The notes under the pieces are model-generated. The model was not told the origin of the DNA, ran no database searches, and saw only the letters and a program-made list of their open reading frames with translations. A DNA stretch of 52,507 nt from Planktothrix mougeotii LEGE 06226. Lineage in GTDB: Bacteria > Cyanobacteriota > Cyanobacteriia > Cyanobacteriales > Microcoleaceae. The position numbers and the translations under genes are program-made. Below, piece after piece: positions 1,585 to 45,473 of the stretch (position 1 is the first letter of the stretch; each line of letters opens with the position of its first letter). Where the stretch lies: the NCBI RefSeq assembly GCF_015207485.1, contig NZ_JADEWU010000005.1, positions 1 through 52,507 on the forward strand, read 5' to 3'.

Positions 1585-1745
1585 TTCTGTTTGAGCTTGC
1601 ATAAGTTTAATCACTTCAGAGATAAGTAAACTTGAGGGGTGAGATCACCTTACCCCTCTGTCCTAAATCACTTGTTGGAGTTGTTGGTTGCTTGGGATTC
1701 ATAAGCCGAATTCAACAAGATACCGACTTCCTCTGTTCCTAACCC

Positions 1746-3233
1746 ATGAGTAAAGCATTAAAGTATTGGACACTGGTTAAACTCGAAAGTTCTGGCCGAC
1801 AAAAACGGTCGGAAATAGCAGCAGCCAAAGCCTTTTTTGAGAGCGCTTTTCCAGAATTCATCGCCGAGGCGGATGTTCCCGATGTGCCCATTCAGAAGCA
1901 ATTAGTACAATGGCTTCGTGATGCTAATTCTCAAGGGAATAATATCAATAGCCAAAATGCAGAATGTTGTCTTTTATGCTTTATTTCTTGGGAAATTGAA
2001 CAGGTTTGCCTTCAGTTAGCTCAACAATTTGGAACCTATCATGGTTTTAGGGGTCAAGACTTATTCCCCTTTGTTTTGGATGAAGAAGGAATTAATCGTC
2101 AGCGCCATTTAGGACAAACAAAAACCCCTTATCAATCCTTTGCACGGGAAATTTTACAAACCTTTGATCCTCAGCAAAGTAGTTTGGCAACTTGGACAAA
2201 TCGACGAGTTAAATTTAATAGTGAAATCAATAAGTTTTTACTAGAGCATGGGGTGTATCTCGTGAGTGATTGGGCAATTTTAAATGATACCCATCCTCAA
2301 CAACTGGAAAAAATTTTAACCCAGTTTTATCAATTAACGTCCCTGGAAGTTGAACAGCGATTACAGCTTTTAGCTTGCTACCATAGCGTTTACCGTAGCC
2401 AACGTTTACAACAACGCCAAGCCGGAGCTAAAAAACGCTGTCAACCGCCAACGGCCCAACAATATCAACAAATTGCTCAACGGTTAGAAACCTTAATTCA
2501 ACAGAGGATTTCTCCTAAAGCCGTCGCCCTGAAATTACAAAATCTAGCAACTCAATTACGCCAATATCGTACCTATATTCGCGGAGGAAAGTTACCCAAC
2601 CAATCCTTTATTTCTATTGATGATTCTGATTCTATTATTGAACAAATTCCTAGCCCTGAAGCGTTAGAAAACGATGAGGAAGACATCAAAAAACAGGAGT
2701 TTTTAAACTGGTATGAAAAACAGTTTTTGATGTGTTTAAATAGCAGTATTGCTCAAGTTTTAGAAACCTGGTTAACAACTTGCCAAAAGCGAGGTGGAGA
2801 AAAAACGGAACAATTTTTAACCGCACTTTATCTGTTTCATTGTCAGGGTCAATCTATGAGCGAAATTGCAGCTACATTAGGATTAAAAGCTCAGTATCAA
2901 GTAACTCGTTTATTAAAGCTTAAAGCCTTTCGCGCTGATGTCAGACATCATTTATTATTGCAGTTACGCGATCGCATTTTAGAGTATACCAAACCTGAGC
3001 ATCTTTCCCAAGAGTTAGAACAGTGGGAAAAACAAATTGAATTAGCCTTAGATGGAGAATTGGAAACCCTGTTTAAACAAGCTGAATCTGATTCCTATAT
3101 TGCTCAAAATCGTCCCCTAGATAGTCCCTTTTTTAAAGGCGTTTGCTACTATTTAGATTTAAGAGAAAAAAGTCCCAACTTGATACAGTCCATGATTTCT
3201 TTATTATCTAAAAATTCCCGACGGAGCTATTAA
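1746..3233 (+). CDS. Hypothetical protein with C-terminal sigma-70 region-4-like HTH; first gene of a four-gene operon
   Basis: 495 aa ORF; segment GQSMSEIAATLGLKAQYQVTRLL resembles a sigma-70 region 4 / LuxR-type helix-turn-helix; 3 nt gap to the next ORF. Confidence 0.4.
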   Translation: MSKALKYWTLVKLESSGRQKRSEIAAAKAFFESAFPEFIAEADVPDVPIQKQLVQWLRDANSQGNNINSQNAECCLLCFISWEIEQVCLQLAQQFGTYHGFRGQDLFPFVLDEEGINRQRHLGQTKTPYQSFAREILQTFDPQQSSLATWTNRRVKFNSEINKFLLEHGVYLVSDWAILNDTHPQQLEKILTQFYQLTSLEVEQRLQLLACYHSVYRSQRLQQRQAGAKKRCQPPTAQQYQQIAQRLETLIQQRISPKAVALKLQNLATQLRQYRTYIRGGKLPNQSFISIDDSDSIIEQIPSPEALENDEEDIKKQEFLNWYEKQFLMCLNSSIAQVLETWLTTCQKRGGEKTEQFLTALYLFHCQGQSMSEIAATLGLKAQYQVTRLLKLKAFRADVRHHLLLQLRDRILEYTKPEHLSQELEQWEKQIELALDGELETLFKQAESDSYIAQNRPLDSPFFKGVCYYLDLREKSPNLIQSMISLLSKNSRRSY

Positions 3234-3235
3234 TA

Positions 3236-4606
3236 ATGTTTACTTCTTTCTTAGATGAATCAGAAGTTTTGTTTGAGTTTGAACCGCTTAATCCTGAAGC
3301 CTTACCCTTATCTTCTGAACAAATTGATCAATCCTTAGATTATTGCCGTTCTATTCTCAATGATCGAAAACAATGGCAAACCTATCTCAATTCTCTAGCC
3401 TTATTTGGGTTTCAGAATTGGTTAGAACAGCGTTCATCAGAACTGGTATTTAATTTAGAGCATCCTTCGTTAGAAAAACCTGAATTAGCTTATTTTATTG
3501 AAGCTGTTTGCCACTTAGCTGTTAATCAATTTAAAATCTGCTTAGTCGCCTTGGGAAATTCTAGGACGGATACTATTATTTTACCTAGGGCTATATTTGA
3601 ATTACCAGAATATAGGGCGCATTATTATATTTTAATTGAAGTTCAAGAAGAATTAGAAACAACCTCAATTTATGGGTTTATTTCCTATTCCGATTTTCAA
3701 ACCCATATAACACAGATTGATTTAGAACCCAAAGCAGATTGGACATATTCTGTTCCCTTATCTTGGTTTAACATAGAACCTGATCAATTTTTATTATTTT
3801 TACGCTGTTTAGAAGTGTCTGCAATTCCTTTACCAGAAATTCCAAATCCTGCAATACTATTATCTCAAATTCGAGAAGAATTAATTAGCAAACTTTCCCA
3901 ACTCCAATCCTCAGAACCCGGTATTTTTCCTGAATTGTGGCAAATTTTAACTTGGGAACAGGGAAAGATTCTTTTCAGTTATCCTGAATTACTGCGGTGG
4001 ATTTATGAAGTACAAAATCAAGTGAGTTTATCGGTACAACCGATTTCTCAATCTCCTCAAAATCCGGTTGCTTATTTAACAGATTTATTTGACTTATTAA
4101 CACAACCTGCGCTCAATTTAGCGCGATGGTTTAACCCGGAATTAGACACAATATCAACAGCTTTATCCTGGGTTTTTATTCCCAATTTTTCTCCAGAAAC
4201 CGCCTTGCGTGACGGAACTGAAATTTCCAGTTTAGTCAAACAACTCCAAGAAAATGGCGTCGAAATTTCTCCCCAAGCCAAAGGTGCTTATCGAGATTTA
4301 GGTTTAGGAGGACGTTCTCTACGATTATATGCTTTAACTTGGCCATTAGAATGGGAAATTGAACCCGAATGGACGCTATTATTAATATTAGGTTTACCTA
4401 CAGGAACGGATTTACCAGTGGGTGTGAAATTACGAGTCAGTGACGCCACCGGAATTTTAGTTGAACAAGATTTAAGTCGGGAAGATCAGTGTTCTTATTT
4501 ATTTACTCGTGTGGTCGGAACTTGTCAAGAAAAATTTGTGGTGACAGTGAGTTTAAGGGAAGATATAACAGAAACATTACCGCCTTTTGAATTTAGTTTC
4601 AATTAA
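3236..4606 (+). CDS. Hypothetical protein (operon member, no recognisable motif)
   Basis: 456 aa ORF tightly packed between flanking co-oriented ORFs (3 nt gap upstream, 20 nt overlap downstream). Confidence 0.4.
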   Translation: MFTSFLDESEVLFEFEPLNPEALPLSSEQIDQSLDYCRSILNDRKQWQTYLNSLALFGFQNWLEQRSSELVFNLEHPSLEKPELAYFIEAVCHLAVNQFKICLVALGNSRTDTIILPRAIFELPEYRAHYYILIEVQEELETTSIYGFISYSDFQTHITQIDLEPKADWTYSVPLSWFNIEPDQFLLFLRCLEVSAIPLPEIPNPAILLSQIREELISKLSQLQSSEPGIFPELWQILTWEQGKILFSYPELLRWIYEVQNQVSLSVQPISQSPQNPVAYLTDLFDLLTQPALNLARWFNPELDTISTALSWVFIPNFSPETALRDGTEISSLVKQLQENGVEISPQAKGAYRDLGLGGRSLRLYALTWPLEWEIEPEWTLLLILGLPTGTDLPVGVKLRVSDATGILVEQDLSREDQCSYLFTRVVGTCQEKFVVTVSLREDITETLPPFEFSFN

Positions 4607-7097
4607 GATTAAAAACCTAAATATGAATGCCATTGTTTCCCCTTTTTATCTCAAAGTTCAACGAGTTGAGCAGGTTTGCTTATTTCAATTATCTTGGGGA
4701 AAAGGGCAAAATTTGGGAGTCACCCTTCCCTATCCTGAACGATTAACTCAACTGTATCAAGAATGGCAATATATTTATCTAAGTTTTTATCAGAAAGCCC
4801 TGCGGGGTCGAGTGGAAGCGACCGGAAAACTTACCCAAAACCAAACAGATTGGCACGCTAAATTAGTTCAAGCAGAAGCAAAATTATTATATGAATTTCA
4901 TCGCTGGTTAAGACATGAAGAATTATATGAAATTCGAGCAACTCTGGCTAAAGCGACATCAAAGCAGAATTTAGAAACTTTACCCCGTCATCCCGGCGTT
5001 GGATTAGATATTGATGTGTTTCTCACCACTGACCCGATAGATGTGGCTCGACTTCCTTGGGAAGCGTGGGAAATTGGTACAGAATTTGCGGCGACTGGAA
5101 AAATTAGAATTGTTCGTCAACCGATTAATATTCGTCAGGTTACAACGACTTCCGAACACCGACCAACCCGCAACAAAGTTAGGGTATTAGTAATTTTAGG
5201 AGATGAAACGGGATTAAATTTTCAAGCTGATAAAGAAGCGGTGCGAGCGCTCGCTCCAATTGCAGAAATTCAGTTTGTCGGTTGGCAACCTCAACAAACT
5301 GTAATGGAGGTTAAACTCGCAGTTGTTAAAGCCATTCAAGATCAAAAAGGTTGGGATATTTTACTGTTTGCTGGTCATAGTAATGAAACGGAATTAACCG
5401 GAGGAGAATTAGGGATTGCGCCCTCAGTTTCGTTGTCCTTATCCGAACTGATTCAACCCTTAACTGTTGCCAAACAACGAGGCTTACAATTTGCTTTATT
5501 TAATTCTTGTAATGGCTTAAGTTTAGCGAATACCTTGATTGATTTAGGATTAAATCAAGTGGCGATTATGCGAGAACCTATCCATAATCAAGTGGCTCAA
5601 GAATTTTTATTACGATTTATTCGCAGCTTAACGGAATATCATGATGTTCATGATGCCTTATTATCCGCTTGTCAATTCCTTAAATTAGAAAAACATTTAA
5701 CCTATCCCAGTGCCTATTTAATTCCGTCCTTATTTCGCCATCCCCACGCTCCTCCGTTTAAATTACAAGCCTTAAGTTGGAAACAACGATTAAAACGATG
5801 GTTTCCGACAAAAAAAGAAGTCTTTGCCCTGACAACCTTATTAGTTATCGCTTGGCAAACTCCGATTCAAAATTTTTTATTAGAACGACGAATTTTGATT
5901 CAAGCTATTTATCGAAATTTAACTCATCAAATTCCAACTCAATCCTCTCCCCCCGTTCTATTAATTTTAATTGATGAAAAATCTATTCTAAAAGCTAAAA
6001 TTTCTAATCCAAGACCGATGGATCGAAGTTATTTAGCTGAGATTATTAATCAGTTAATTCAACTTAATCTGCAAATAATTGGCATTGATTATTTATTAGA
6101 TCGTCATCAACCTCAAAACGATCCCATTTTATCCCAATCTTTACAAAATGCAGTTCAAAATCATCAAACTTGGTTAATATTTGGAACCAGTAAAAATCCC
6201 ACCGGAGGATGGTTTGAAACCTTACCCGAATTAGCGAGTCCTAATTGGAGCTTACAAGGGGATTTAAGAATATTAGGTTATCCTCCCCTCTATACCACCT
6301 TACTGCCCCTTCCTGACTCTCGACAACAACCTTTACCCTTCGCTTATTTATTAGCTTTAGCGTATCAATTAAACGTTCAAGAACTTGAACCTCCTTCCCC
6401 TCAACTTAACTCATCCGTTGATTGGCTATCCCATTTAAAAGCCTATTTAATTGATAGTACCGGAACAGATTATCAAAGGTTATTTTCATCAAAAGCACGT
6501 TTACAACCGATCACAAATTGGGCATATTTATTAAAGCAATGGTGGTTTCATCCCCTGATTGATTTTTCAATTCCCCCAAAACAAGTGTATCAAAGTCTTC
6601 CCGCTTGGCAATTATTTGAGTCTCCAGAGTCTACCTTGAAACTTTCTACTCCCTTTGTCGTTCTAATTGCACCAGGGGGATATGGTGAAGCCGGAATTGC
6701 AACAGAAGGTCAGGATAATTTTCCTTTACCTATGGCATTAAATTATTGGTATTCTCAGGAAACACCACGCAATTATCGCCAAGTCTTACCGGGAGGTGAA
6801 GTTCATGCTTACATGACTCATCACTTTATTCAGCAACGATTTGTGATTCCCATTCCTGACCTTTTGCTGATTTTAATTGCCGCTTTATTCGGAAAAGGAG
6901 CGACTTTATCCTTAGCAACAGTTCGTCCTCAAAAAATAAAGTATATCCTGGTGTTTTTGGGATTAACAGGAATATATGGATTAGGGAGTGTACAGGTTTA
7001 TATTACAGGGGAACTTCTGCTTCCTTGGGTGTTACCAACTTTGATGTTTTGGATGTATATTTTTCTGACATTTGTGGAAAGGAAATTTTATGGCTAA
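4587..7097 (+). CDS. CHAT-domain (caspase-like His/Cys protease) protein fused to a CHASE2-like membrane sensor region with C-terminal TM helices
   Basis: 836 aa; caspase/CHAT-like dyad context DILLFAGHSNE ... QFALFNSCNGLS; internal hydrophobic segment (VFALTTLLVIAW); three C-terminal hydrophobic helices (LLLILIAALFG, ILVFLGLTGIYGLG, LLLPWVLPTLMFWMYIFLTF), consistent with TM-periplasmic-3TM CHASE2 topology. Confidence 0.55.
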   Translation: MNLVSIKIKNLNMNAIVSPFYLKVQRVEQVCLFQLSWGKGQNLGVTLPYPERLTQLYQEWQYIYLSFYQKALRGRVEATGKLTQNQTDWHAKLVQAEAKLLYEFHRWLRHEELYEIRATLAKATSKQNLETLPRHPGVGLDIDVFLTTDPIDVARLPWEAWEIGTEFAATGKIRIVRQPINIRQVTTTSEHRPTRNKVRVLVILGDETGLNFQADKEAVRALAPIAEIQFVGWQPQQTVMEVKLAVVKAIQDQKGWDILLFAGHSNETELTGGELGIAPSVSLSLSELIQPLTVAKQRGLQFALFNSCNGLSLANTLIDLGLNQVAIMREPIHNQVAQEFLLRFIRSLTEYHDVHDALLSACQFLKLEKHLTYPSAYLIPSLFRHPHAPPFKLQALSWKQRLKRWFPTKKEVFALTTLLVIAWQTPIQNFLLERRILIQAIYRNLTHQIPTQSSPPVLLILIDEKSILKAKISNPRPMDRSYLAEIINQLIQLNLQIIGIDYLLDRHQPQNDPILSQSLQNAVQNHQTWLIFGTSKNPTGGWFETLPELASPNWSLQGDLRILGYPPLYTTLLPLPDSRQQPLPFAYLLALAYQLNVQELEPPSPQLNSSVDWLSHLKAYLIDSTGTDYQRLFSSKARLQPITNWAYLLKQWWFHPLIDFSIPPKQVYQSLPAWQLFESPESTLKLSTPFVVLIAPGGYGEAGIATEGQDNFPLPMALNYWYSQETPRNYRQVLPGGEVHAYMTHHFIQQRFVIPIPDLLLILIAALFGKGATLSLATVRPQKIKYILVFLGLTGIYGLGSVQVYITGELLLPWVLPTLMFWMYIFLTFVERKFYG

Positions 7098-7827
7098 GTT
7101 CAACTTTGTGCGTTCTCTTTGGAGATGCACAACCCTGGTCAGCATAATAGGATTTTCGGTTATTCCTCCTGCACTGAGTGAACCCAGTTTTTATCCTTTA
7201 GAATTTAAAAAAAGTTCCCATTCTGGAGAAGAATTGTATCAGCTTGCTAATCATGATTCTTCAACGACTAATCATGAACCGCCTGTCTATTCTCCTGGGG
7301 GGTCACGGGGAAATGAAATTTGTACAATTGTTCCTCTAACCCAACCTAATAATCATCAAGTTGATAGTGAAATTTGGAGTGACAAACCCACTTTTATTTG
7401 GCGAGGAAATATTGAATATGTAGAACTGCATTCTGATGACAATGGGACTTTAATTTGGAGTCAAAATATTTCGGATTCTAAGCAAAGTATTTCCTATACG
7501 GGAGAACCGCTTCAACCTGGAGAAACCTATCAATTATCACTTTATGATATCTCTAATCCTGATGTCAGTGATTTTCCCCGTGACTCTTTAACTTTTAAAG
7601 TTATAGAAACCCATCAACACCAGAAAATTCAGCAGGATTTAGAAGAATTAGAAACGCAACTGCATCAACAAAAAGCCCCCGCAGAAGCAATTACTTTAGC
7701 TCGGATTCAATATTTTGTAGAACATCAGTTATGGTCAGATGCTCTGATGGAATCTTCCTCAATTCAGGTTCAAGACCCCAGTTTAAATGAGTTATTAAAA
7801 ACTAAAGTGTCCCGTTCTTGTGGATAA
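7072..7827 (+). CDS. Secreted hypothetical protein (signal peptide); last gene of the CHAT operon; probable true start at 7090
   Basis: 251 aa ORF; N-terminal MAKFNFVRSLWRCTTLVSIIGFSVIPPALS looks like a signal peptide; overlaps the upstream ORF. From memory only, DUF928-type secreted proteins accompany CHAT proteins in cyanobacteria; this was not verified. Confidence 0.4.
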   Translation: MWKGNFMAKFNFVRSLWRCTTLVSIIGFSVIPPALSEPSFYPLEFKKSSHSGEELYQLANHDSSTTNHEPPVYSPGGSRGNEICTIVPLTQPNNHQVDSEIWSDKPTFIWRGNIEYVELHSDDNGTLIWSQNISDSKQSISYTGEPLQPGETYQLSLYDISNPDVSDFPRDSLTFKVIETHQHQKIQQDLEELETQLHQQKAPAEAITLARIQYFVEHQLWSDALMESSSIQVQDPSLNELLKTKVSRSCG

Positions 7828-11865: not shown

Positions 11866-12744
11866 ATGACGTTTTCAACGACCCCTTTAATAGGACTCCG
11901 AGCCGATCATTTTCGTCATCCGTTGGATTTACAAGCGACCAATGCTTTGAAACAATTGCCCGGTTTAGATTTATTAGTCCGGCAAATTTTAGGCGGTGTC
12001 GGGGAACAGTTTTTTTATTTAGAAAATATTGCGTCTAGTATTTTAGTTAGTGATCAACAATTACCTGCTCTTCATCAATTATTATTAGCCGCTTGCAAAA
12101 CTTTAGATTTAGAACCGCCTCAACTTTATATTCGTCAACATCCGGTTCCCAATGCTTATACTTTTGCAATGCGGGGAAAACAACCGTTTATTGTTATTCA
12201 TACCTCGTTAATTGAGTTATTAACCTCGGAAGAAATTCAAGCGGTAATTGCCCATGAGTTAGGACATTTAAAATGCGAACATGGGGTATATTTAACCTTA
12301 GCGAATTTAGTGGTCTTAGCGGCGAATCAATTGTCGCCTTGGGGAACAATTTTAGCTCAGGGGTTACAAGCGCAGTTAATGGAATGGTTACGCTGTGCTG
12401 AGTTTACTTGCGATCGCGCAGCCCTATTAGCAACTCAAGATCCAAGAGTCGTGATGTCGGTATTGATGAAACTGTCGGGGGGTTCTCCCAGTTTAGCTTC
12501 GCAACTGAATTTAGATGCCTTTGTTGCCCAAGCCCGGACGTATGATCAAATTAGTCGCACAGAATTGGGAGAACTGCTTCAACAAGCTCAAACCGCCCAA
12601 TTAACCCATCCCCTTCCGGTCTTGCGGGCCAGAGAAATTGATCGCTGGTCGAGTAGTCCTAATTATCAGGACTTGCTAAAACGAAACTTTATGGTTTATA
12701 ATAGTGAAGCTAACCCAAACAAGGGCGGGTGGCGGAATTGGTAG
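11866..12744 (+). CDS. M48 family zinc metallopeptidase (HtpX-like)
   Basis: 292 aa; HExxH motif in AHELGHLKCEHG; M48-like context. The ORF's last ~7 codons run into the tRNA-Leu gene, so the true stop may be misjudged. Confidence 0.7.
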   Translation: MTFSTTPLIGLRADHFRHPLDLQATNALKQLPGLDLLVRQILGGVGEQFFYLENIASSILVSDQQLPALHQLLLAACKTLDLEPPQLYIRQHPVPNAYTFAMRGKQPFIVIHTSLIELLTSEEIQAVIAHELGHLKCEHGVYLTLANLVVLAANQLSPWGTILAQGLQAQLMEWLRCAEFTCDRAALLATQDPRVVMSVLMKLSGGSPSLASQLNLDAFVAQARTYDQISRTELGELLQQAQTAQLTHPLPVLRAREIDRWSSSPNYQDLLKRNFMVYNSEANPNKGGWRNW

Positions 12745-12804
12745 ACGCACCGCACTCAAAATGCGGCGGCTTCGGTCGTGAGAGTTCGAGTCTCTCTCCG
12801 CCCA
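12723..12804 (+). tRNA. tRNA-Leu (anticodon CAA)
   Basis: GGGCGGGTGGCGGAATTGGTAGACGCACCGCACTCAAAATGCGGCGGCTTCGGTCGTGAGAGTTCGAGTCTCTCTCCGCCCA: Leu-type D-arm (GCGGAATTGGTAGACGC), anticodon loop CTCAAAA (anticodon CAA), long variable arm, T-arm GAGTTCGAGTCTC, acceptor GGGCGGG/CCGCCC. No encoded CCA. Confidence 0.85.
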
Positions 12805-13138: not shown

Positions 13139-14602
13139 CTATAAAACCGATCTCAAATCTAAATAGGAATCTACGGTATCTGCTAATAAATCTAATAACA
13201 ATTCTCGCTGTTCTCGATAATTAGCAATTCCAGTGGGTAAAGCATTTAACCCTCTGGGTTTTCGCAGATGATTTAACCAGGTTCGTCGCCAAGGGCCATT
13301 ATCAAAAACCCCATGTAAATAATGACCCCAAATCGATTTTTGCTGATTAACAAATCCTAAATTCGGGTCATTAAATAAAGGAGAAATATCGTTAGAATCT
13401 AACAATTGAGTTCGTCCTTGATGAATTTCAAATCCTTCAACGGGTAAACCTTCTTGGGGAAAATGGGATGAAACCAACCGTTGACGGGAGGTTTTTTGAG
13501 TGGACATAACGGTTTTAAGCGGTAATAATCCTAACCCTTCATAATCGCCCTGTTGTCCTTCTAAACCATAGGGATCTGACACAATTTTTCCTAACATTTG
13601 ATAACCGCCACAAATTCCCATCACCTGACCCCCCGCCTCGACATAATTTTTAATTTGATTTGCCATTCCCGATTGTTTTAAGACTTGCAGGTCAGATATC
13701 GTCGTTTTAGACCCAGGAAGAATGACGGCATCGGGATGTCCTAAAGTGTCAGAAGGCGCTACATACTTAATTTTAACGCTGGTTTCAGCATCTAGGGGAT
13801 CAAAATCTGTAAAATTAGCAATACGAGGAAATCGGATAACGGCAATGGTTAATTCCGCTTGGGCCGAACTCGGACGACGATCTAATAAACTTAAAGAATC
13901 TTCTGCGGGGAAGGGATGATCAATCCAAGGAATAACCGCAACAACCGGAATTCCCGTATACTCCTCTAACCATTTTATCCCCGATTCTAATAGCGATCGC
14001 TGTCCTCTAAATTTATTAATAATAATGCCTTTAATTAATGCCTGTTCATCAGGGTCTAAAAGTTGCAAAGTTCCCACAACATGAGCAAAGGCCCCCCCGC
14101 GATCAATATCAACCACTAATAACGTTTTGGCATTCAAATATTTTGCCACCCGCATATTGGTTAAATCTCGATGTTTGAGATTAATTTCGGCGGGACTGCC
14201 AGCACCTTCACAAACTAAAATATCAAATTCCTGGGTTAAATAGTCTAAACATTCAGTAATAGTTTGCCAACCCCGATCAAAATAGTGTTCATAATAATCA
14301 CTTGCTTGCACAACTCCCACAGGTTTGCCTTTTAAAATCACCTGAGAGGTCATATTTCCTTGGGGTTTTAATAAAATAGGATTCATAGAAACAGAAGGTG
14401 TCACTCCCGCCGCCCAGGCTTGCACCGCTTGAGCATAACCCATTTCTGATCCGGCCGGAGAAACATAGGAATTCAGAGCCATATTTTGCCCTTTAAAGGG
14501 AGCAACCCGCACGCCGCGACGATGTAAAATTCGACAAATGGCCGTGACCATCATGGATTTTCCAGCATGGGAAGTCGTTCCCACAATCATGATTGCTTTC
14601 AT
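13139..14602 (-). CDS. cobQ: Cobyric acid synthase
   Basis: 487 aa; N-terminal MKAIMIVGTTSHAGKSMMVTAICR (CobQ/CbiP P-loop-like) and C-terminal GATase-like region with GICGGYQMLG. Confidence 0.85.
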   Translation of the reverse strand: MKAIMIVGTTSHAGKSMMVTAICRILHRRGVRVAPFKGQNMALNSYVSPAGSEMGYAQAVQAWAAGVTPSVSMNPILLKPQGNMTSQVILKGKPVGVVQASDYYEHYFDRGWQTITECLDYLTQEFDILVCEGAGSPAEINLKHRDLTNMRVAKYLNAKTLLVVDIDRGGAFAHVVGTLQLLDPDEQALIKGIIINKFRGQRSLLESGIKWLEEYTGIPVVAVIPWIDHPFPAEDSLSLLDRRPSSAQAELTIAVIRFPRIANFTDFDPLDAETSVKIKYVAPSDTLGHPDAVILPGSKTTISDLQVLKQSGMANQIKNYVEAGGQVMGICGGYQMLGKIVSDPYGLEGQQGDYEGLGLLPLKTVMSTQKTSRQRLVSSHFPQEGLPVEGFEIHQGRTQLLDSNDISPLFNDPNLGFVNQQKSIWGHYLHGVFDNGPWRRTWLNHLRKPRGLNALPTGIANYREQRELLLDLLADTVDSYLDLRSVL

Positions 14603-14714
14603 AAATGATCACTGAAGATAGAGACTAATATTCTAATCGCTTAGGGTTAAAAACCGTCAACCCATCTCTGGCAATGGTGTGGGATGATAGTGGAGACTTT
14701 CTAACGATTTTGTT

Positions 14715-15386
14715 ATGGCTAATCAACTGCGTATTTATGTCCCCCCCCATCCTTTAATTAAACATTGGTTAGGAGTTGCTCGTGATCAGGCGACTCCTCC
14801 GGCTTTATTTCGCACGGCGATGACGGAGTTAGGACGTTGGTTGACCTACGAAGCCGCCAAAGACTGGTTACCAACCCTGGAAACAACGGTACAAACCCCG
14901 TTAACCGAATGTAACGCCACCTTTGTTAATCCTGAAGTTCCCCTGATCGTGATTCCTATTTTACGCGCGGGTTTAGCGTTAATGGAGGGAATTCAAAGCG
15001 TTGTGCCTTTATCTTCGGTTTATCATATTGGCATGGTACGCAACGAAGAAACCCTAGAAGCCAGTTGCTACTTAAATAAATTACCTCCCCAATTTGATCC
15101 TCAAACGCGGGTGATGATTAGTGAACCGATGTTAGCAACAGGGGGAACAATCATGGCGGTGATGGAAGAACTCACCCAGCGCCATCTTGACCCCGCTTTG
15201 ATTCGGATTATTTCCATTGTCGCCGCCCCCCCAGCGTTACAAAAATTAAGTCAAGCTTATCCCAGTTTGCAAATCTATACCGCTATTATTGATCCTGAAG
15301 TCAATGAACAGGGCTTTATTGTACCCGGTTTGGGAGATGCAGGAGATCGAACGTTTGGCACATTCGACCGTCTCCCCACCGAATAG
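14715..15386 (+). CDS. upp: Uracil phosphoribosyltransferase
   Basis: 223 aa; LIVIPILRAGLALMEG and PRPP-binding region VMISEPMLATGGT typical of UPRTase. Confidence 0.8.
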   Translation: MANQLRIYVPPHPLIKHWLGVARDQATPPALFRTAMTELGRWLTYEAAKDWLPTLETTVQTPLTECNATFVNPEVPLIVIPILRAGLALMEGIQSVVPLSSVYHIGMVRNEETLEASCYLNKLPPQFDPQTRVMISEPMLATGGTIMAVMEELTQRHLDPALIRIISIVAAPPALQKLSQAYPSLQIYTAIIDPEVNEQGFIVPGLGDAGDRTFGTFDRLPTE

Positions 15387-15501
15387 ATCGCGGTTGTTGT
15401 CGCAACAGTAAGTGTGTCTCCCTTTTTTCCTGACTGTTGCCTGTTCCCTGTTGTCTGTTCCCTACTATAAAATCAAGCTATTGTGACAAAGTGGTTAAAT
15501 T

Positions 15502-15798
15502 ATGGGTAATCGAGATGGTTTTGGTAGTGGCTTCTTCCTCGGTGCAACCCTAGGAGGGTTTGTGGGCGGGGTATTAGGAGTGGTACTCGCTTCCCGCATC
15601 ACCAATTCCGAAAGCGGTGAACCCTTGCCAGAAATACCGGGAAAGTCGGGGAAGTCTGCTAAATTGACGGGAGAACATATCGAAACCGCCCGTTTGAGTT
15701 TGGAGGATAAAATTGCTCAACTCAATCAAGCCATTGATGATGTTCGTCAACAGTTAGGCAATGTCAATGGCAATAGTAGCTCGGAAACTTATGATTAA
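15502..15798 (+). CDS. Hypothetical small protein with Gly-rich hydrophobic N-terminus
   Basis: 98 aa ORF; GFGSGFFLGATLGGFVGGVLGVVLA (probable TM) then a polar tail. Confidence 0.4.
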   Translation: MGNRDGFGSGFFLGATLGGFVGGVLGVVLASRITNSESGEPLPEIPGKSGKSAKLTGEHIETARLSLEDKIAQLNQAIDDVRQQLGNVNGNSSSETYD

Positions 15799-15909
15799 TC
15801 GATGGGGGTATCCCGTTTGATTTTCCCCCCTTTTCTTAAATGTGATACACTAAGGGTCATAACTTTATCTCAAATTCAGTCAAATTGAGTTAAACATCAA
15901 ATAAATTTT

Positions 15910-16200
15910 ATGGCACTTCCTTTCGGCTTACTCGCTAACACCCTGGCACAGTTCCTCAACATTTATATGATAATCCTATTTATTAGGATTTTATTAAGCT
16001 GGTTTCCAACTATTAACTGGTTTGATCCCCCCTTCTCGATTTTAAGTCAGTTAACTGACCCCTATCTCAATCTTTTTCGGTCTTTTATTCCACCTTTAGG
16101 GGGAATTGATTTTTCAGCTATTATTGCTATTTTTGCTCTCCAATTTGGCTCTCAAATTATTATTGCTTTATTAGGCAGTATGCAGCAAATGGCATTTTAA
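15910..16200 (+). CDS. YggT family membrane protein (Ycf19-like)
   Basis: 96 aa; YMIILFIRILLSWFP ... DPYLNLFRSFIPPLGGIDFSAII matches YggT family conserved features. Confidence 0.75.
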   Translation: MALPFGLLANTLAQFLNIYMIILFIRILLSWFPTINWFDPPFSILSQLTDPYLNLFRSFIPPLGGIDFSAIIAIFALQFGSQIIIALLGSMQQMAF

Positions 16201-16405
16201 TTCCCACCGTAGTAAGCCCTTCAGGGCTTTCTTTATTTTCCGCAAATGGTATTTTAATTCCCACTCCAAACGTAGTAAGCCCTTCAGGGCTTTCTTTATT
16301 TTCCGCAAATGGTATTTTAATTCCCACTCCAAACGTAGTAAGCCCTTCAGGGCTTTCTTTTATCAAATTGAGTTAAAAGAAAAGTCCTGAAGGACTTACT
16401 ACGTT
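16184..16405. repeat. About 3 tandem copies of a ~63 bp unit containing the palindrome AAGCCCTTCAGGGCTT, followed by an inverted partial copy (MITE/REP-like element)
   Basis: Direct reading: unit GCAAATGG(T/C)ATTTTAATTCCCAC(TCCAAA)CGTAGTAAGCCCTTCAGGGCTTTCTTTATTTTCC repeated ~3x (16184-16365); then the inverted variant AAAGTCCTGAAGGACTTACTACG at 16381-16403. Lies between the convergent yggT and ntrC. Confidence 0.8.
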
Positions 16406-16432: not shown

Positions 16433-17800
16433 TTACAAATTATTCTGAATTAATTCTCGATATAAACTCTTGGGTTTCACACCTTTGAGGTCTTGAATTA
16501 AATCCTTATTTTTGAACATTTGTAGGGTTGGAGTCCCAACTACCCCCGCGTTTTGAGCAATTTCAGGATCTTCTTCAATGTCAATTTCGACATAATGAAT
16601 TTTACCCTCAAATTCACCAACCACTTTATCTAAAATTGGTTTAAGCGCATGACAGGGCCCGCAGGTGGGTGAGGCATATTTTACCACAATTAAGCGATCG
16701 CTATCATGGTAAAGTTTCCGCAAGGCATAACCCCCCGTATGGCGGGTATTTTGGATATCAAAATTTTCAGAAGTGGTAATTTGAGGTTGGGTTGAAGGTG
16801 TCGTTTCTGCTGCTGGTTCAGAAGTTTCTGTTTGTTGAACTTCCTGCGCTAACCCATTAATCGATAACCACCGCTCTGCTAACATCGCTCCCATACAACC
16901 ACTTCCAGCGGCTGTAATGGCTTGACGAAACTCATGATCTTGGACATCCCCAACCGCATAAACCCCCTCAACGCTGGTTTCAGGAGTGCCATGTTTTGTA
17001 ACAATATATCCCACTTCATCCAGTTGTAATTGTCCTTGGAAAATTTGGGTATTGGGAGTATGACCAATGGCATAAAATAACCCCTGGACGGGTAAATCCT
17101 GTTGTTCTCCCGTTTGGTTATTCTTAATTTTAATCCCGCCTAATTTATCATTGCCATAAACATCCACCGCTTCCGTATTCCAATGCACCGTAATTTTAGG
17201 ATGCTGAAGAACCCGTTGCTGCATAGCTTTACTCGCCCGCAATTCATTTCGTCTGACTAATAAATGAACATGGGTGGCGTATTTAGTTAAATAAACGGCT
17301 TCCTCGGCGGCGGTATCTCCTCCCCCAATCACCGCTAATTCTACACCTTTGAAAATTGGACTCGCCCCATCACAAATGGCACAGGCGGAAATTCCCGCAT
17401 TCCAAAAGGTTTCTTCCTGGGGTAAATGCAGCCGTTTCGCCGTCGCCCCCGTTGCAATTACAATGGTATGGGTTTTGATTTCCCGGTCTTCAGATTTAAT
17501 AGTAAAGGGACGTTGACTTAAATCAACGGAAATCACATCTTCGGTAAACAGTTCCGCCCCCCACCGTTGAGCTTGGGCTTTGATTCTATCCATGAGTTCC
17601 GGCCCGGTAATGCCTTCGGGAAAACCAGGGAAGTTCTCAACTTCTGTGGTGGTCATTAACTGACCCCCCGGAATTCCCCCGATTTGATAGCCTTCAAAAA
17701 CAACGGGTTTCAAGTTCGCCCGTCCTGCATAAATCGCCGCCGTGTAGCCCGCAGGCCCAGAACCAATAATGACAAGATTTTCAACAGTTGGGTTTGTCAT
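16433..17800 (-). CDS. ntrC: NADPH-dependent thioredoxin reductase C (TrxR fused to thioredoxin)
   Basis: 455 aa; N-terminal FAD motif [21 protein letters not shown], TrxR redox CAICDG, and C-terminal thioredoxin module with [12 protein letters not shown] (CGPC). Confidence 0.85.
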
Positions 17801-20755: not shown

Positions 20756-21263
20756 GAAGTATTATAAAATTCAGCCTTGAATGGATGTGCAGGAGTCAAC
20801 AACCCACCACTGACTTGAGTACAAGTACAGTGGGGGCTTGAAATACAGCCCTAGTTGACCCGCCTAAGTCTTAACTGACTCCGTTATTTAGGTCACGACA
20901 CCGGAAAATGCGTAGCTAGTTTTCCGCTCTGTCGCTGAGTATTAAACAACCATTTGGGAGGCAGTGTACTCAGCCGAAAAAGCCTTGATAACATTGGCCA
21001 AGCTAACATTACCCTAGAAATAGGAGGGGGAGAAATCCCCAAACCCAATTAAACGCCCTACCGAGGCGGGTCGAACCAGAACAATATCGGTAGCCTCAAT
21101 CCTGTAATCCCAACAGGTATGCCGGGGAGTTTCGCCACTTCTGAGGCACAACGGTTTCCTCCAAACCACAAGAATTCACTATGTTGCATAGACCCCGCCC
21201 TCCCTTTCCTCTCACCGCCAAGCTGAGTACAGCTATGGCGGGAGTCTCCAGGGAGGAAGAAAG

Positions 21264-22139
21264 GTGAAGCCGTTGAAGCATTCTAGTCTGCCTAAACAAG
21301 CCGAAACTGTCGCGGATGAATCAACTCAAGAGATTCCAGAAGCAATACGAGATGTTCCCGTTGTGACCGTGGCTTCCTCCCGACCCCCTCAGAGACCTGG
21401 ACTCTTCTGGAAAATGTTGGGGTTAGCCGTCGTGGCGTTCTGTACGGCTTTAGCCATTAATTATCAATTTGGAATTCTGTCTCCCAAAGCTTATATCCCC
21501 CTGATAGAAACTACCCCAGAAGCCAAAAGTTCTGTTACATCTTCCCCGTCTCCTAGTCCGAGCACGTCAGTTTCAGCGACACCAACCGCCCCCTCCCCTA
21601 GTGCCTCTCCAACCCTACCGGACAATTTATTAGGTCATCTCCCCTATGAAGAAGCTCCAGCCGCAGAGTTAGAAAGTATTACCCCCGATGGGAGTCATCG
21701 GTTACGCAAAGCTGCCGCCCAAGCTTATCAGGAAATGGAGCAAGCGGCTTTAGCCAGTGGGGTGAGTTTAGTTCCGATTTCCAGCTTTCGCACGGTTAAA
21801 GAACAGGAAGGAATCTTTTTTGAAGTCAAAGCCCAACGGGGACAAGGAGCAACCAAACGCGCCGAGGTAAGCGCACCGCCGGGATATAGTGAACATCATA
21901 CGGGTTATGCCATGGATATTGGGGATGGAAATATGCCCTCAACGAACTTGAGTGTTAGTTTTGAACAAACTCAGGCTTTTCAATGGTTAAAAGAGAATGC
22001 CGCTTTTTATAGTTTTGAGTTATCCTTTCCTAAGAATAATCCCCAAGGGGTGAGTTATGAACCTTGGCATTGGCGGTTTGTCGGAGATCGCCAGAGTTTG
22101 GAAACGTTTTATAAAGCCAGAAATCTGAAGAAAAGCTGA
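21264..22139 (+). CDS. D-alanyl-D-alanine carboxypeptidase (VanY / peptidase M15 family), membrane-anchored
   Basis: 291 aa; TM (FWKMLGLAVVAFCTALAI), Ser/Pro/Thr-rich linker, and the M15 motifs SEHHTGYAMDIGDG and EPWHWRF. Confidence 0.7.
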   Translation: MKPLKHSSLPKQAETVADESTQEIPEAIRDVPVVTVASSRPPQRPGLFWKMLGLAVVAFCTALAINYQFGILSPKAYIPLIETTPEAKSSVTSSPSPSPSTSVSATPTAPSPSASPTLPDNLLGHLPYEEAPAAELESITPDGSHRLRKAAAQAYQEMEQAALASGVSLVPISSFRTVKEQEGIFFEVKAQRGQGATKRAEVSAPPGYSEHHTGYAMDIGDGNMPSTNLSVSFEQTQAFQWLKENAAFYSFELSFPKNNPQGVSYEPWHWRFVGDRQSLETFYKARNLKKS

Positions 22140-38033: not shown

Positions 38034-42190
<4,157 letters not shown>

Positions 42191-42195
42191 AAACC

Positions 42196-43026
42196 ATGAC
42201 AAATTTAGTGTATTTGTATCTACTCGCTCCCTTACATACAGGGGGAACCACTCAAGAAGGAAATCTATTAGGAATTGCCCGTGAATCTCATACGAATTTA
42301 CCTTACATTCCTTCCAGTAGCATTCGGGGAAGAATTCGAGCCAGTGTCAGCGATCGCATTACCTGTGTTAAGCTGTTTGGCCCGGATTTAAAAGATTTAG
42401 AAAATCGTCAGTTTTTAGATGAATATAAATTAGAAACCAATAAAGATCTCACTCAATTAGAACAAGGAGATATTTGGATCGGCGATGGTTCCTTATTATG
42501 GTTGCCTGTTCCTTCTTTAAGTCATGGTGTTGTCTGGATTAGTTGCCCGCTTCTGTTACAACGTTGGGCAAGATTTAACCCAAATTTACCTGAAATTCCC
42601 GCACCTTATAGCACAAATTTAGGGAATTCTAATGTTTATCTCAAAGATGCTATTTTAAAACAAAATCAACTCTCTACCTGGAATAATTGGAAAGACTTTC
42701 TTCCGCAAAACCAATCGAATCAATCAATTCAACGGGTTTTATTACTTCCTGATCAACATTGTGCCACCTTAATTCAAATGAGTTTGTGGCGACAAGTGAA
42801 AGTTAAACTTGATCAAAATAAATCAGTTGATGGTGGTTTTCGTTATGAAGAAGCCATCCCTCCTGATAGCGTGATGTATTTTCCTTGGGGAATTACATCA
42901 CAAACTAATGGCACAGCAGAAAAATCAAAGACAGATTTTCAAGACTTGCTTTCAGTTAATGAAGTTTTACAAATTGGGGGTCAAGAAAGTTTAGGTCGTG
43001 GTTTTGTTCAATCTTGGTTAAATTAA
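42196..43026 (+). CDS. cmr4: Cmr4 (Cas7 backbone subunit); start chosen at the Met 6 nt after the cmr3 stop
   Basis: About 276 aa; N-terminal LYLLAPLHTGGTTQEGNLLGIARE...LPYIPSSSIRGRIRA is the characteristic Cmr4 G-rich and RAMP motif. Confidence 0.75.
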   Translation: MTNLVYLYLLAPLHTGGTTQEGNLLGIARESHTNLPYIPSSSIRGRIRASVSDRITCVKLFGPDLKDLENRQFLDEYKLETNKDLTQLEQGDIWIGDGSLLWLPVPSLSHGVVWISCPLLLQRWARFNPNLPEIPAPYSTNLGNSNVYLKDAILKQNQLSTWNNWKDFLPQNQSNQSIQRVLLLPDQHCATLIQMSLWRQVKVKLDQNKSVDGGFRYEEAIPPDSVMYFPWGITSQTNGTAEKSKTDFQDLLSVNEVLQIGGQESLGRGFVQSWLN

Positions 43027-43046
43027 TTATTTAAGGAGTTAAACTC

Positions 43047-43427
43047 ATGGCATTTGATCCACGTACTATTGCTACTCCTGTTTATGAAGCATTATCAGGA
43101 CTGCAAACTCAATATTACAATCAAAATGAGCGCCTTCAAGAACAAAAAAGCCAAGCTGTTGAATTGTATACCTATTTAGCCACTTGGGGATTGATGCGAC
43201 TTAAAGCAGAAGAAACAGCGTTAAATCAAGACGGTAAAAAAGATGTAGTTAAAAAATATTTTGCCTGTTTAGAAGAACTATCTGGGTTAACTAATCTTGC
43301 TAATGCTGAAGGTCTTAAAATCTTAAAAAATCTCAATGCAGATGAATATTTAGGTTTAACAGGTTTAGGTTTAACAGTCGCTCAAGAATTTAGTTTTTGG
43401 GCAAATGCTATTTATGTAGGAGACTAA
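43047..43427 (+). CDS. cmr5: Cmr5 (Cas11 small subunit)
   Basis: 126 aa all-helical small ORF between cmr4 and cmr6, the standard position and size for Cmr5. Confidence 0.65.
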   Translation: MAFDPRTIATPVYEALSGLQTQYYNQNERLQEQKSQAVELYTYLATWGLMRLKAEETALNQDGKKDVVKKYFACLEELSGLTNLANAEGLKILKNLNADEYLGLTGLGLTVAQEFSFWANAIYVGD

Positions 43428-43431
43428 GATT

Positions 43432-45411
43432 ATGGCTTTTGATCGACCCAGAAGACCAGGACAAACCCCACCAGCGACCTCTCGCCCTAACCAAGCAGTT
43501 CAACGTAATACGTCTCGACCAACTCCTCCAAATTCTAATCGTTCATCAGGTGGTGATGGGGGTCGCAGAGGAGGAGGAAGCAATGGCGGTGGCGGTGGCG
43601 GCGGCAATCAACCTAATCTCCCGTCCCCTTGGTTAGATTCTGACAATGAACCTTCGCCAGATAAAACGGCCAGTTTTGTTGAATATTTGCGTTGGATGCG
43701 TTCCCCTGATAGTGGCTATAAAGACGCGACAAAAGTTCAAATTTTACAAATGGCGGAGGAAAACGCTAACTATCAACAACGTCTGGAACAATTAACAGAC
43801 CGAACTCAATTAATTGCCGGAAAAGAAAACTGTTTTAAAGTCAAATGTCCTTGGCGAATTCGAGTCGGAGGACATCGGGGGCCAGAAAGTATTTTACTTC
43901 CTGCTTTTGATGCCTTGGGAATGCCTTATATCCCGTCTTCTAGTTTGCGAGGTGTGGCAAGAAATCAAGCTATTCGGGAAATCATGTCTAAGGAAAAAGT
44001 AGACTGGAAAGAAGCCGAGAAACAGATTGCCCCTTGGTTTGGTTCTCTTGAGGAAGAAGAGAAAGATCGCTCTGGAAAAGTGATATTTTTAGATGCCTAT
44101 CCTCTTCCTAAACAAGATGGGTTAACCGTTGATATGGCTAATAATATTTGGAAATGGGAGGGAAATGATTTCAAGTATAACCCTAATCCTAATCCATTTT
44201 TATCTTTAAAAGAACCGATGTTTTTAATGGGTTTACGGTTAGCTATTGGATGTACTGATATTGAAGTTTTAAACCAAGTTAAGAAATGGTTAATTAAAGG
44301 ACTACAAGCCGGAATTGGTTCTCAAGTGAATACGGGTTATGGAGAACTGATGAAAGCGGGAGAAGGACGACCGAAAGAGGAGTTTTTCAGCTTAGATTTT
44401 ACCCTACAAGGTCAACTCATTCATGGGCGACAAAAGTTTACTCAATGGAACTGGAATGATAACCGTCAAGAATGGCAAATGCGAGGTCAAGCAGAAGCAG
44501 AGGTGCGTCCTGTTGCGTTTAAATCCATGTTGAGATATTGGTTTAGAACTTTAGCATTAGGTGTTTTACCGATAGGAGAGGTTTCGACTTGGGAAAATAA
44601 GTTATTTGGAGGGATTAATCCTCAACGGGAATGGGGTTGGGTTAAAGTTGAAATTTTAGAAGGAAAAGTGACTCAAAAAGAACCTAAACCTAATTATCAA
44701 GGTAAAAATGATCCTTGCGGAGAACAGGAAGGAACCTTAACCCTTTCCTATGGAGTCGGTTGTCCAACTGATCCTAAAACTCGACAAGCCATCAATACAT
44801 TAATGAAGAATTTAACTTGGTTAATGTTTCATTTAGGAGGGATTGGACAGGGAGCAAGACGACCGTGCTATTCTCGTCAAACCCGTGAACGTGCCCCTTG
44901 GTGGAGAGGCTCAACGTTAATTCCTAATGATGATGATTCCTTCTGGGAATTACCTGATAATGTTCTAGCGTTTAAAGAGAAATGTGTCACTCATTTACAA
45001 AAAATTTATCAAGCCATTTCTCAACTGTTTAATATTCCTAATCTTCGTCCGATTAATAATCCCATTAATCTAGGACAAGTGCGTCAAGATAACTGGAAAG
45101 AAGCCATTGATGCTAACTGTCGGATTATTGTTTGTGCTGGGAAGTCTCAACAGGAGAAACCTTATGCTTTAGGAGTGTTACATAGTCCTGATTTTAAAAT
45201 TACTAAAGGTCAATACAAGGATTATGACGGTAATTTATGTGGTCAAGTTAGCCGAGGGGTTAAACCTTCTCCTGTTTGGATTGCAGATCTAGGAGATTAT
45301 CAAGTTGTAACAATATTTGGAGCGACAGAAAATCCTCGACAGCGTTATATTCAGGAGTTGCGATCGCGCACTTCCAAGGATAACTTTGCTCAAATCTGGC
45401 CATTAAATTGA
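43432..45411 (+). CDS. cmr6: Cmr6-like Cas7 RAMP, unusually large (659 aa) with N-terminal Gly/Arg-rich low-complexity tail; possibly a Cmr6/Cmr1-type fusion
   Basis: RAMP motif GMPYIPSSSLRGVARNQ; G-rich loop HLGGIGQGARRPCYS; N-terminal SSGGDGGRRGGGSNGGGGGGGNQ; no separate cmr1 gene in the locus. Confidence 0.6.
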   Translation: MAFDRPRRPGQTPPATSRPNQAVQRNTSRPTPPNSNRSSGGDGGRRGGGSNGGGGGGGNQPNLPSPWLDSDNEPSPDKTASFVEYLRWMRSPDSGYKDATKVQILQMAEENANYQQRLEQLTDRTQLIAGKENCFKVKCPWRIRVGGHRGPESILLPAFDALGMPYIPSSSLRGVARNQAIREIMSKEKVDWKEAEKQIAPWFGSLEEEEKDRSGKVIFLDAYPLPKQDGLTVDMANNIWKWEGNDFKYNPNPNPFLSLKEPMFLMGLRLAIGCTDIEVLNQVKKWLIKGLQAGIGSQVNTGYGELMKAGEGRPKEEFFSLDFTLQGQLIHGRQKFTQWNWNDNRQEWQMRGQAEAEVRPVAFKSMLRYWFRTLALGVLPIGEVSTWENKLFGGINPQREWGWVKVEILEGKVTQKEPKPNYQGKNDPCGEQEGTLTLSYGVGCPTDPKTRQAINTLMKNLTWLMFHLGGIGQGARRPCYSRQTRERAPWWRGSTLIPNDDDSFWELPDNVLAFKEKCVTHLQKIYQAISQLFNIPNLRPINNPINLGQVRQDNWKEAIDANCRIIVCAGKSQQEKPYALGVLHSPDFKITKGQYKDYDGNLCGQVSRGVKPSPVWIADLGDYQVVTIFGATENPRQRYIQELRSRTSKDNFAQIWPLN

Positions 45412-45421
45412 TTTATACTTT

Positions 45422-45460
45422 TAGTAGCTAGTTTTAAAAAAGCTAACTACTAATTTTTTC
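45422..45460 (+). terminator. Rho-independent terminator candidate downstream of cmr6
   Basis: TAGTAGCTAGTT-TTAAAAAAG-CTAACTACTA imperfect hairpin (8 of 9 bp) followed by ATTTTTTCC. Confidence 0.4.
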
Positions 45461-45473
45461 CATTGGATTAACT

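Follow-up and report, generated by a model that had tools for sequence, protein, structure and literature searches.

A conserved cyanobacterial operon encoding a CHAT-CHASE2 membrane protein, a putative sigma-like factor and a secreted DUF928-type protein behind a candidate promoter motif

Caspase-fold proteases are abundant in multicellular cyanobacteria, and their trigger, substrate and output are known for almost none. Here we describe a four-gene operon, conserved across filamentous cyanobacteria, that pairs a caspase-fold protease with an identifiable input, in the form of a CHASE2 sensor domain and a secreted partner, and with a putative output, in the form of a very divergent sigma-like factor and a candidate promoter motif. 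The operon lies on the forward strand of a 52,507-nucleotide (nt) stretch of the Planktothrix mougeotii LEGE 06226 genome (contig NZ_JADEWU010000005.1, assembly GCF_015207485.1; the whole stretch is hereafter the window, and all positions count from its first letter), and it is an orthologue of a system predicted computationally in 2021 (Kaur, Iyer, Burroughs and Aravind, eLife 2021; PMC8195603). If the proposed link between protease and sigma-like factor is true, the operon would offer the first example of a sigma factor controlled by a caspase-like protease, and it would provide an experimental handle on the 'programmed cell death' genes of cyanobacteria, in a system that its conserved promoter motif makes testable.

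The initial annotation of this DNA had listed four co-oriented open reading frames (ORFs), and our check of the window found all of them on the plus strand at those coordinates: g1 (1746-3233, 495 aa), g2 (3236-4606, 456 aa), g3 (4587-7097, 836 aa from a TTG codon) and g4 (7072-7827, 251 aa from a TTG codon). Two of the start codons can be corrected from orthologues. A P. mougeotii database protein that is 100% identical to g3 has 824 aa, which places the start of g3 at ATG 4623 (4623-7097), and a P. tepida protein that is 92% identical to g4 has 245 aa, which places the start of g4 at ATG 7090 (7090-7827), preceded by the Shine-Dalgarno-like run GGAAAGGAAA. The 3-nt spacing or overlap that had been claimed throughout thus stands for g1/g2, where the stop codon and the next ATG are separated by 2 nt, and for g3/g4, which overlap by 8 nt; the corrected start of g3 lies 16 nt past the g2 stop, so that g2 and g3 do not overlap. 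No terminator-like site was found on the plus strand within the operon by a consensus promoter and terminator scan that was otherwise uninformative. The flanking genes are housekeeping genes, namely a DJ-1/PfpI gene on the 5' side and, on the 3' side, an Ap4A phosphorylase, an alanine-dehydrogenase-like gene and MurA. Paralogues of g1-g4 were considered and rejected for the window, as no other copies were found within its 52.5 kb.

The gene set shows strong synteny. Relatives of g3 were found in at least 589 species by a scan of one genome per species, and synteny was scored on the best 80 loci with hidden Markov models built for g1-g4 and run on all of their ORFs. These loci are cyanobacterial and mostly from filamentous or multicellular organisms, except for two bins labelled 'uncultured bacterium' and one labelled Acetobacteraceae. 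The g4 gene directly follows g3 in 59 of the 76 loci with enough flanking sequence; the 8-nt overlap is the modal arrangement, counted over 61 related loci, which argues for translational coupling and shows that the close packing is not due to chance. Both g1 and g2 occur no more than 10 kb ahead of g3 in 42 of 68 loci, immediately adjacent in 31, and the full set of four is present in 37 of 67. The synteny in related genomes that the initial annotation had left to be checked is therefore found, and the four-gene operon is real. Its members differ in pace: mean column identity is 55% for g3, 50% for g1, 46% for g2 and 28% for g4, making the secreted partner the fastest-evolving member, and g1-g3 are single-copy orthologues, 45-75% identical across orders. 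In one locus (L053, 1514-3814, plus strand), a single 766-aa ORF matches both the g1 and the g2 profile, suggesting a g1-g2 fusion, which may be an assembly or frameshift artefact because the metagenome-assembled genome has a coverage of only about 2.8x.

The product of g3 combines a CHAT domain (PF12770; 5046-5669, plus strand; 26.6 bits against a cutoff of 24) with an extracytoplasmic CHASE2 sensor domain (PF05226; 5838-6890, plus strand; E 2.2e-15, 57.4 bits, profile positions 4-254 of 257), so that domain searches bear out both assignments made from the sequence of the 836-aa protein. The FAGHSNE and FNSCNG contexts that had been read as caspase-like are present, and the residues concerned, His252 (codon 5376-5378, in FAGHS) and Cys296 (codon 5508-5510, in FNSC), are invariant in 27 aligned homologues from different genera, which argues that the CHAT domain is catalytic. 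Peptidase_C14 (PF00656) gave no match in g3 at E <= 0.01; CHAT and Peptidase_C14 belong to the same caspase-fold clan. Ahead of CHAT, residues 1 to about 115 form a domain that is strongly conserved in the same 27-sequence alignment and that, judged by architecture alone, would occupy the EACC2 position. Behind CHASE2, a hydropathy scan places three strong transmembrane (TM) helices at aa 740-758, 774-792 and 798-816. Searches returned 1560 homologues, the top 120 of which all have 800-950 aa and CHASE2, and mostly CHAT as well; with aa 1-375 alone as query, the best 150 of 2006 matches were CHASE2-type orthologues only. A profile search against PDB sequences gave no meaningful match.

Translated from the overlap with g3, g4 encodes a protein with a signal peptide, as had been noted at the outset, followed by an FN3-like beta-sandwich and a helical domain. 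The suggestion that it belongs to DUF928 (PF06051) fares less evenly: g4 itself scores 19.2 bits, below the cutoff of 26, whereas 12 of 32 homologues carry PF06051 and the UniRef name of a 92%-identical relative is DUF928, so that we regard g4 as a divergent member of the family despite its own score. The alignment contains an invariant GGSRG..C..P directly after the signal peptide and a near-invariant C-terminal Cys, a pattern that suggests a processing site, a periplasmic disulfide bond, or both. AlphaFold2 models the folded part (aa about 78-240) with a predicted local distance difference test (pLDDT) score above 90, and its predicted fold is of a protein-binding type rather than that of an enzyme. 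The idea that g4 is a substrate of the protease was rejected, because g4 has a signal peptide and the CHAT domain is cytoplasmic, which puts the two in opposite compartments. DUF928 genes elsewhere (L088, 1081-6885, plus strand; L087, 7894-14738) adjoin a giant POTRA+TPR+CHAT gene (1934 aa), a Peptidase_C14+DUF4384 gene and TPR-CHAT genes, which suggests a wider CHAT/caspase network around DUF928.

The first gene, g1, has 946 homologues, which are cyanobacterial and, without exception, annotated as hypothetical. The sigma-70 region-4-like helix-turn-helix (HTH) proposed in the initial annotation was recovered by hhalign, which matches aa 356-390 of g1 to residues 141-175 of E. coli RpoE, in register with its region 4.2 (E 0.018), within an HTH at about aa 356-400. 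Sigma Pfam models match none of 34 family members in a scan at E <= 5, which returned only scattered HTH matches, and jackhmmer started from E. coli RpoE converged without matches among all locus ORFs. A permissive phmmer search with RpoE over the fetched loci led to a 405-aa protein in L028 that scores above the gathering threshold of Sigma70_r4, has weak Sigma70_ECF and Sigma70_r2 matches at collinear positions, and is encoded just ahead of a canonical DUF1822 gene (389 bits). Over 235 columns, from an FDPxQSS motif to the HTH, the profile of the g1 family aligns with this protein (hhalign probability 94.3%, E 1e-7), and the HTH is collinear with its Sigma70_r4 match. A sigma-2-like motif at about aa 129-170 of g1 and a long helical insert with a disordered acidic linker (aa 285-309) complete the predicted layout. 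With the AlphaFold2 model of g1 (pLDDT 80) as query, 11 of the top 50 Foldseek matches in the PDB are chains of the sigma-70 family, aligned over their whole length at weak E-values of 0.03-3. Together, remote homology and predicted structure point to g1 as a very divergent sigma-70/ECF-like protein.

In the Cyanomargarita genome of L028, the paralogous Sigma70_r4 and DUF1822 genes (13835-16388, minus strand) lie 6 kb from g3-g4; the interval encodes a TPR protein, an S8 subtilase and a Peptidase_C14+DUF4384 protein.

The remaining gene, g2, is a member of DUF1822 (PF08852), as had been guessed; the match is full-length (E 2.1e-56, profile positions 1-369 of 370). Kaur et al. call the family 'TPR' or 'TRADD-N+TPRs', and their supplement lists natural HTH+TRADD-N+TPR fusions annotated as DUF1822 (PMC8195603). 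Our profile search found no relative of g2 among PDB sequences, TRADD included. The tight pairing of g1 and g2 resembles that of sigma and anti-sigma genes, and we infer that g2 partners with g1 or regulates it.

A promoter-like element precedes this gene set in many genomes. Shared words and dyads in the 260 nt upstream of g1 at 39 loci yielded the two-block element TGCATAA-N13/14-AGAnATA, which in the window takes the form of a candidate operon promoter at 1598-1627 (plus strand), with the -35-like block TGCATAAG (1598-1605) and the -10-like block AGAGATAAGT (1618-1627). The pattern TGCATAA-N12-15-AGANHTA has a single match in the 52.5 kb (1598-1624; 0.03 expected), and this match falls in the 161-nt spacer upstream of g1. 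It scores 23.6 with a position weight matrix, against scores mostly below 13 for shuffled sequences, one of 20 of which reached 19.6. An alignment of six g1 upstream regions from distant genera has invariant columns in the two blocks only, which marks the motif as a phylogenetic footprint. Besides the window, the strict pattern occurs upstream of g1 in 14 loci, and of 38 other loci that were tested for a relaxed version (one mismatch in block 1, a looser block 2), 26 have it. Over all loci (about 1.5 Mb), the operon strand carries 48 strict-motif sites and the opposite strand 6, compared with a mean of 1.05 for block shuffles and none for the reversed sequence. Since the motif is directional and non-palindromic, has the spacing of a -35/-10 pair and lies between unconserved flanks, we read it as a candidate promoter, of which the g1 sigma-like factor would be the obvious reader. 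A repeat or mobile element was considered as its source and rejected, since conservation is confined to the two blocks and does not extend to the flanks.

The motif also marks genes other than g1. It precedes g3 in 8 loci, most of which have no g1-g2 pair adjacent to g3, g2 in one, and other ORFs in 31 cases. Thirty of these 31 are distinct and 19 fall into two BLAST clusters, sampled members of which encode TPR-CHAT proteins (1000-1200 aa) or TPR-only proteins; further ORFs sampled were one S8 subtilase and two proteins without a Pfam match. L087, a hold-out locus fetched later by way of its DUF928 protein and hence outside the motif discovery set, contains four sites, all on the plus strand, located in front of a PALP-domain gene, a TPR giant and a 188-aa ORF that is followed by the DUF928 gene.

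Directly behind the predicted promoter of the window, the predicted 5' leader (1628-1748) folds at -38.1 kcal/mol (z = -3.7 against shuffles) and begins with a stable 10-bp hairpin at 1634-1658 (plus strand; GAGGGGUGAG...CUUACCCCUC). A different element, GGAGGTG(A/G)AAAAATTGAGG, lies between the motif and g1 in seven Nostocales-like loci (L020, L054, L057, L064, L071, L075 and L081) and resembles a Shine-Dalgarno sequence with the TTG start of a mini-ORF or of an N-terminal extension.

We propose that these components form a signalling pathway, a model to which we would give about even chances: a periplasmic signal received by CHASE2 and g4 would cause the CHAT protease to cleave g2 or g1, and the sigma-like factor would then transcribe from motif-bearing promoters. 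In such a pathway, g3 would sit in the cytoplasmic membrane with CHASE2 in the periplasm and the EACC2-like and CHAT module in the cytoplasm, and g4, made in translational coupling with g3 and exported, would serve CHASE2 as a periplasmic accessory, whether co-sensor, ligand presenter or inhibitor. The signal would turn on the protease, which would cut a cytoplasmic partner, most likely g2, the DUF1822 protein, or else g1 at its disordered linker. Release of g1 would allow it to bind RNA polymerase and steer it to TGCATAA-N13/14-AGAnATA promoters, among them that of its own operon, creating positive feedback, and in other genomes those in front of g3-g4, TPR-CHAT giants, small TPR proteins and S8 subtilases. 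A bolder version, which we put forward only tentatively, makes the operon the core of a hitherto unmapped regulon, in which a caspase-fold/CHASE2 receptor, with DUF928 as periplasmic co-receptor, would gate a cryptic sigma factor with its own promoter code, and the latter would activate its own genes together with TPR-CHAT, caspase and subtilase proteases. If true, bacteria would possess a 'death-receptor-like' proteolytic cascade that spans the membrane and has a transcriptional arm.

Several observations weigh against this pathway. Profile searches with g1 gave no direct match in Pfam, NCBIfam or PDB sequences, and its putative sigma-2 region is suggested only by the sub-threshold Sigma70_r2 match of the L028 protein and by motif resemblance. 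The motif may be the site of a factor other than g1, and a cleavage site in a substrate could not be identified. The TM-flanked topology first assigned to CHASE2 is firm on its C-terminal side, with three strong helices, and less so on its N-terminal side, where the helix at about aa 402-420 is only weakly hydrophobic (score 1.24). Finally, the four genes are not obligatorily linked, given that 26 of 68 loci lack g1-g2 in the 10 kb preceding g3 and that g4 is missing in 15 of 76, by what appears to be genuine loss in Okeania, Dapis, Coleofasciculus and others.

This incomplete linkage speaks for regarding g1-g2 and g3-g4 as independent modules that are often neighbours, with g3-g4 proteolysis directed at unrelated targets and the motif being the site of another regulator. 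A g1 homologue lies elsewhere on the chromosome in Capilliphycus, the order is g2-g3-g4-g1 in Kamptonema, and insertions of 4-8 kb split the two pairs in several Nostocales. Such independence is nevertheless improbable in our view: the pairs are co-located in 42 of 68 loci that span Oscillatoriales, Nostocales, Pleurocapsales and Leptolyngbya-like lineages, one and the same motif is found ahead of g1 when the genes are together and ahead of g3 when they are apart, and paralogous EACC2-caspase proteins that have other C-termini likewise come with DUF1822 and sigma genes (PMC8195603). A reading in which g1 is an ordinary HTH regulator or scaffold and CHAT a non-proteolytic interaction module draws on the fact that profile methods detect only the HTH of g1, on the failure of sigma Pfam models to match any of the 34 family members, and on a CHAT score barely above threshold. 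We give it similarly little credence, since the invariant His252 and Cys296 argue for catalysis, the hhalign link to a Sigma70_r4-passing protein with collinear weak Sigma70_r2 and Sigma70_ECF matches extends well beyond the HTH over its 235 columns, the top Foldseek matches are whole sigma factors, and the motif, with its two blocks and its directionality, resembles a promoter and is not palindromic.

The published interpretation of Kaur et al. is that of a conflict or programmed-cell-death system, in which an invader or damage signal would set off a death cascade through neighbouring TPR-CHAT, Peptidase_C14 and S8 proteases, with the sigma factor as a mere amplifier. The set does contain a caspase-fold protease, its extended neighbourhoods in other genomes hold TPR-CHAT giants, Peptidase_C14+DUF4384 proteins and S8 subtilases, and g4 evolves fast (28% mean column identity against 55% for g3). 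In the window, however, no such effector proteases lie near the operon, whose neighbours are the housekeeping genes named above, and none of the four proteins matches a defence-system model of PADLOC-DB. The conservation of g1-g3 as single-copy genes, with g3 relatives in at least 589 species, is unlike that of fast-turnover defence islands, and the sensor faces the periplasm, whereas phage components appear in the cytoplasm. We therefore consider a death or defence system unlikely, and favour the signalling pathway from CHASE2 to motif-bearing promoters.

Several other features were noted in the window. A tRNA-Leu(CAA) gene (12723-12804, plus strand) starts within the final 22 nt of the ORF at 11866-12744, and an NTRC-type thioredoxin reductase-thioredoxin fusion (Pyr_redox_2 + Thioredoxin) is encoded at 16436-17800 on the minus strand. 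A full-length HEARO/IscB omega-RNA match (RF02033, 143.7 bits) at 20795-21012 on the plus strand looks like an orphan because no IscB/HNH ORF adjoins it, the next ORF (21264-22139) encoding a VanY D-Ala-D-Ala carboxypeptidase. A type III-B CRISPR-Cas (Cmr) gene cluster occupies 38034-47186 on the plus strand, with Cmr2/Cas10 at 38034-41075, a RAMP protein at 43432-45411 and an AAA_15/AbiEii-like ATPase at 45474-47186.

Among known systems, the proposed pathway would share its logic with the E. coli RpoE-RseA-DegS/RseP system, in which an envelope signal likewise leads through proteolysis to sigma release and an autoregulated operon, and in which the sigma gene immediately precedes that of its partner, as g1 precedes its presumed partner g2 (compare the rpoE-rseA layout). 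The differences are considerable: g1 has 495 aa and a large insert and can hardly be recognised as a sigma factor, neither a TM helix nor an anti-sigma domain is present in g2, the sensor is fused to its protease, which is of the caspase-fold cysteine type and not a serine or site-2 protease, and the steps of the pathway are inferred. Canonical CHASE2 receptors are histidine kinases, cyclases and Ser/Thr kinases, according to Zhulin et al. 2003 as cited in PMC8195603. They share with g3 a periplasmic CHASE2 domain bracketed by TM helices; their output domain follows the last TM helices, whereas in g3 CHAT precedes the sensor and nothing extends past the last TM helix. The comparison with the C-terminal domain of MtxA (PDB 4z29) is limited to 12% sequence identity, and the biology of MtxA (magnetotaxis), a protein of unknown function, is unrelated.

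Closer relatives have been in the literature for some time. A metacaspase-CHASE2 fusion of Trichodesmium erythraeum was catalogued by Jiang et al. 2010 (PMC2853523), its topology of 1+3 TM helices was discussed by Asplund-Samuelsson et al. 2012 (PMC3501461), and a caspase-CHASE2 protein has been drawn as a hypothetical death receptor in a review (PMC7475262). The Trichodesmium protein shares with g3 a cytoplasmic N-terminal caspase-like domain followed by CHASE2 between one and three TM helices, and Trichodesmium homologues are about 58% identical to g3. The two papers treat the protein alone, without operon partners, and Pfam assigns the protease domain of g3 to CHAT rather than Peptidase_C14.

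The closest precedent is the set of systems defined by Kaur et al. (PMC8195603), in which proteins whose N-terminus is a constant EACC2 domain of alpha+beta type, followed by a caspase domain and a variable C-terminus, occur with an ECF sigma factor and DUF1822, and for which stimulus-induced activation of an autopeptidase with a transcriptional end-point was proposed, the same general logic as here. A Fischerella row of their supplement reads '?? -> TRADD-N+TPRs (DUF1822) -> EACC2+CASPASE+CHASE2+TM+TM -> TM+beta_rich+TPRs', which is the same four-gene order, with 'TM+beta_rich+TPRs' in the position of g4. The gene set and its broad logic have thus already been described computationally, and the impression that the functional logic of the set was undescribed does not survive, the fusion itself having been known since 2010 and 2012. 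Of the defining features of these systems, the Planktothrix operon has the caspase-fold His/Cys protease, the C-terminal module of CHASE2 and TM helices, and the adjacent DUF1822 gene; the region 4.2 HTH of g1 is recognised by hhalign, direct Pfam searches being negative, and an adjacent ECF-type sigma gene is recognised only through the L028 intermediate. An NCBIfam scan of all four proteins gave no matches, and we found no experimental work on the gene set in the literature on EACC2, DUF1822, DUF928 and sll1891.

The earlier study was purely computational, left the first gene of the CHASE2 row as '??', did not identify the fourth as DUF928, and proposed neither a promoter motif nor a regulon. 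It also framed these genes as fast-diversifying conflict systems, whereas the CHASE2 subfamily described here is a conserved orthologous group among housekeeping genes. To that prediction our analysis adds evidence that links the '??' gene to the sigma family, the recognition that the fourth gene, translationally coupled, encodes a DUF928 protein with an FN3 and helical fold, a quantified synteny, and a candidate promoter motif with its putative regulon, the motif being the most useful new handle on the system.

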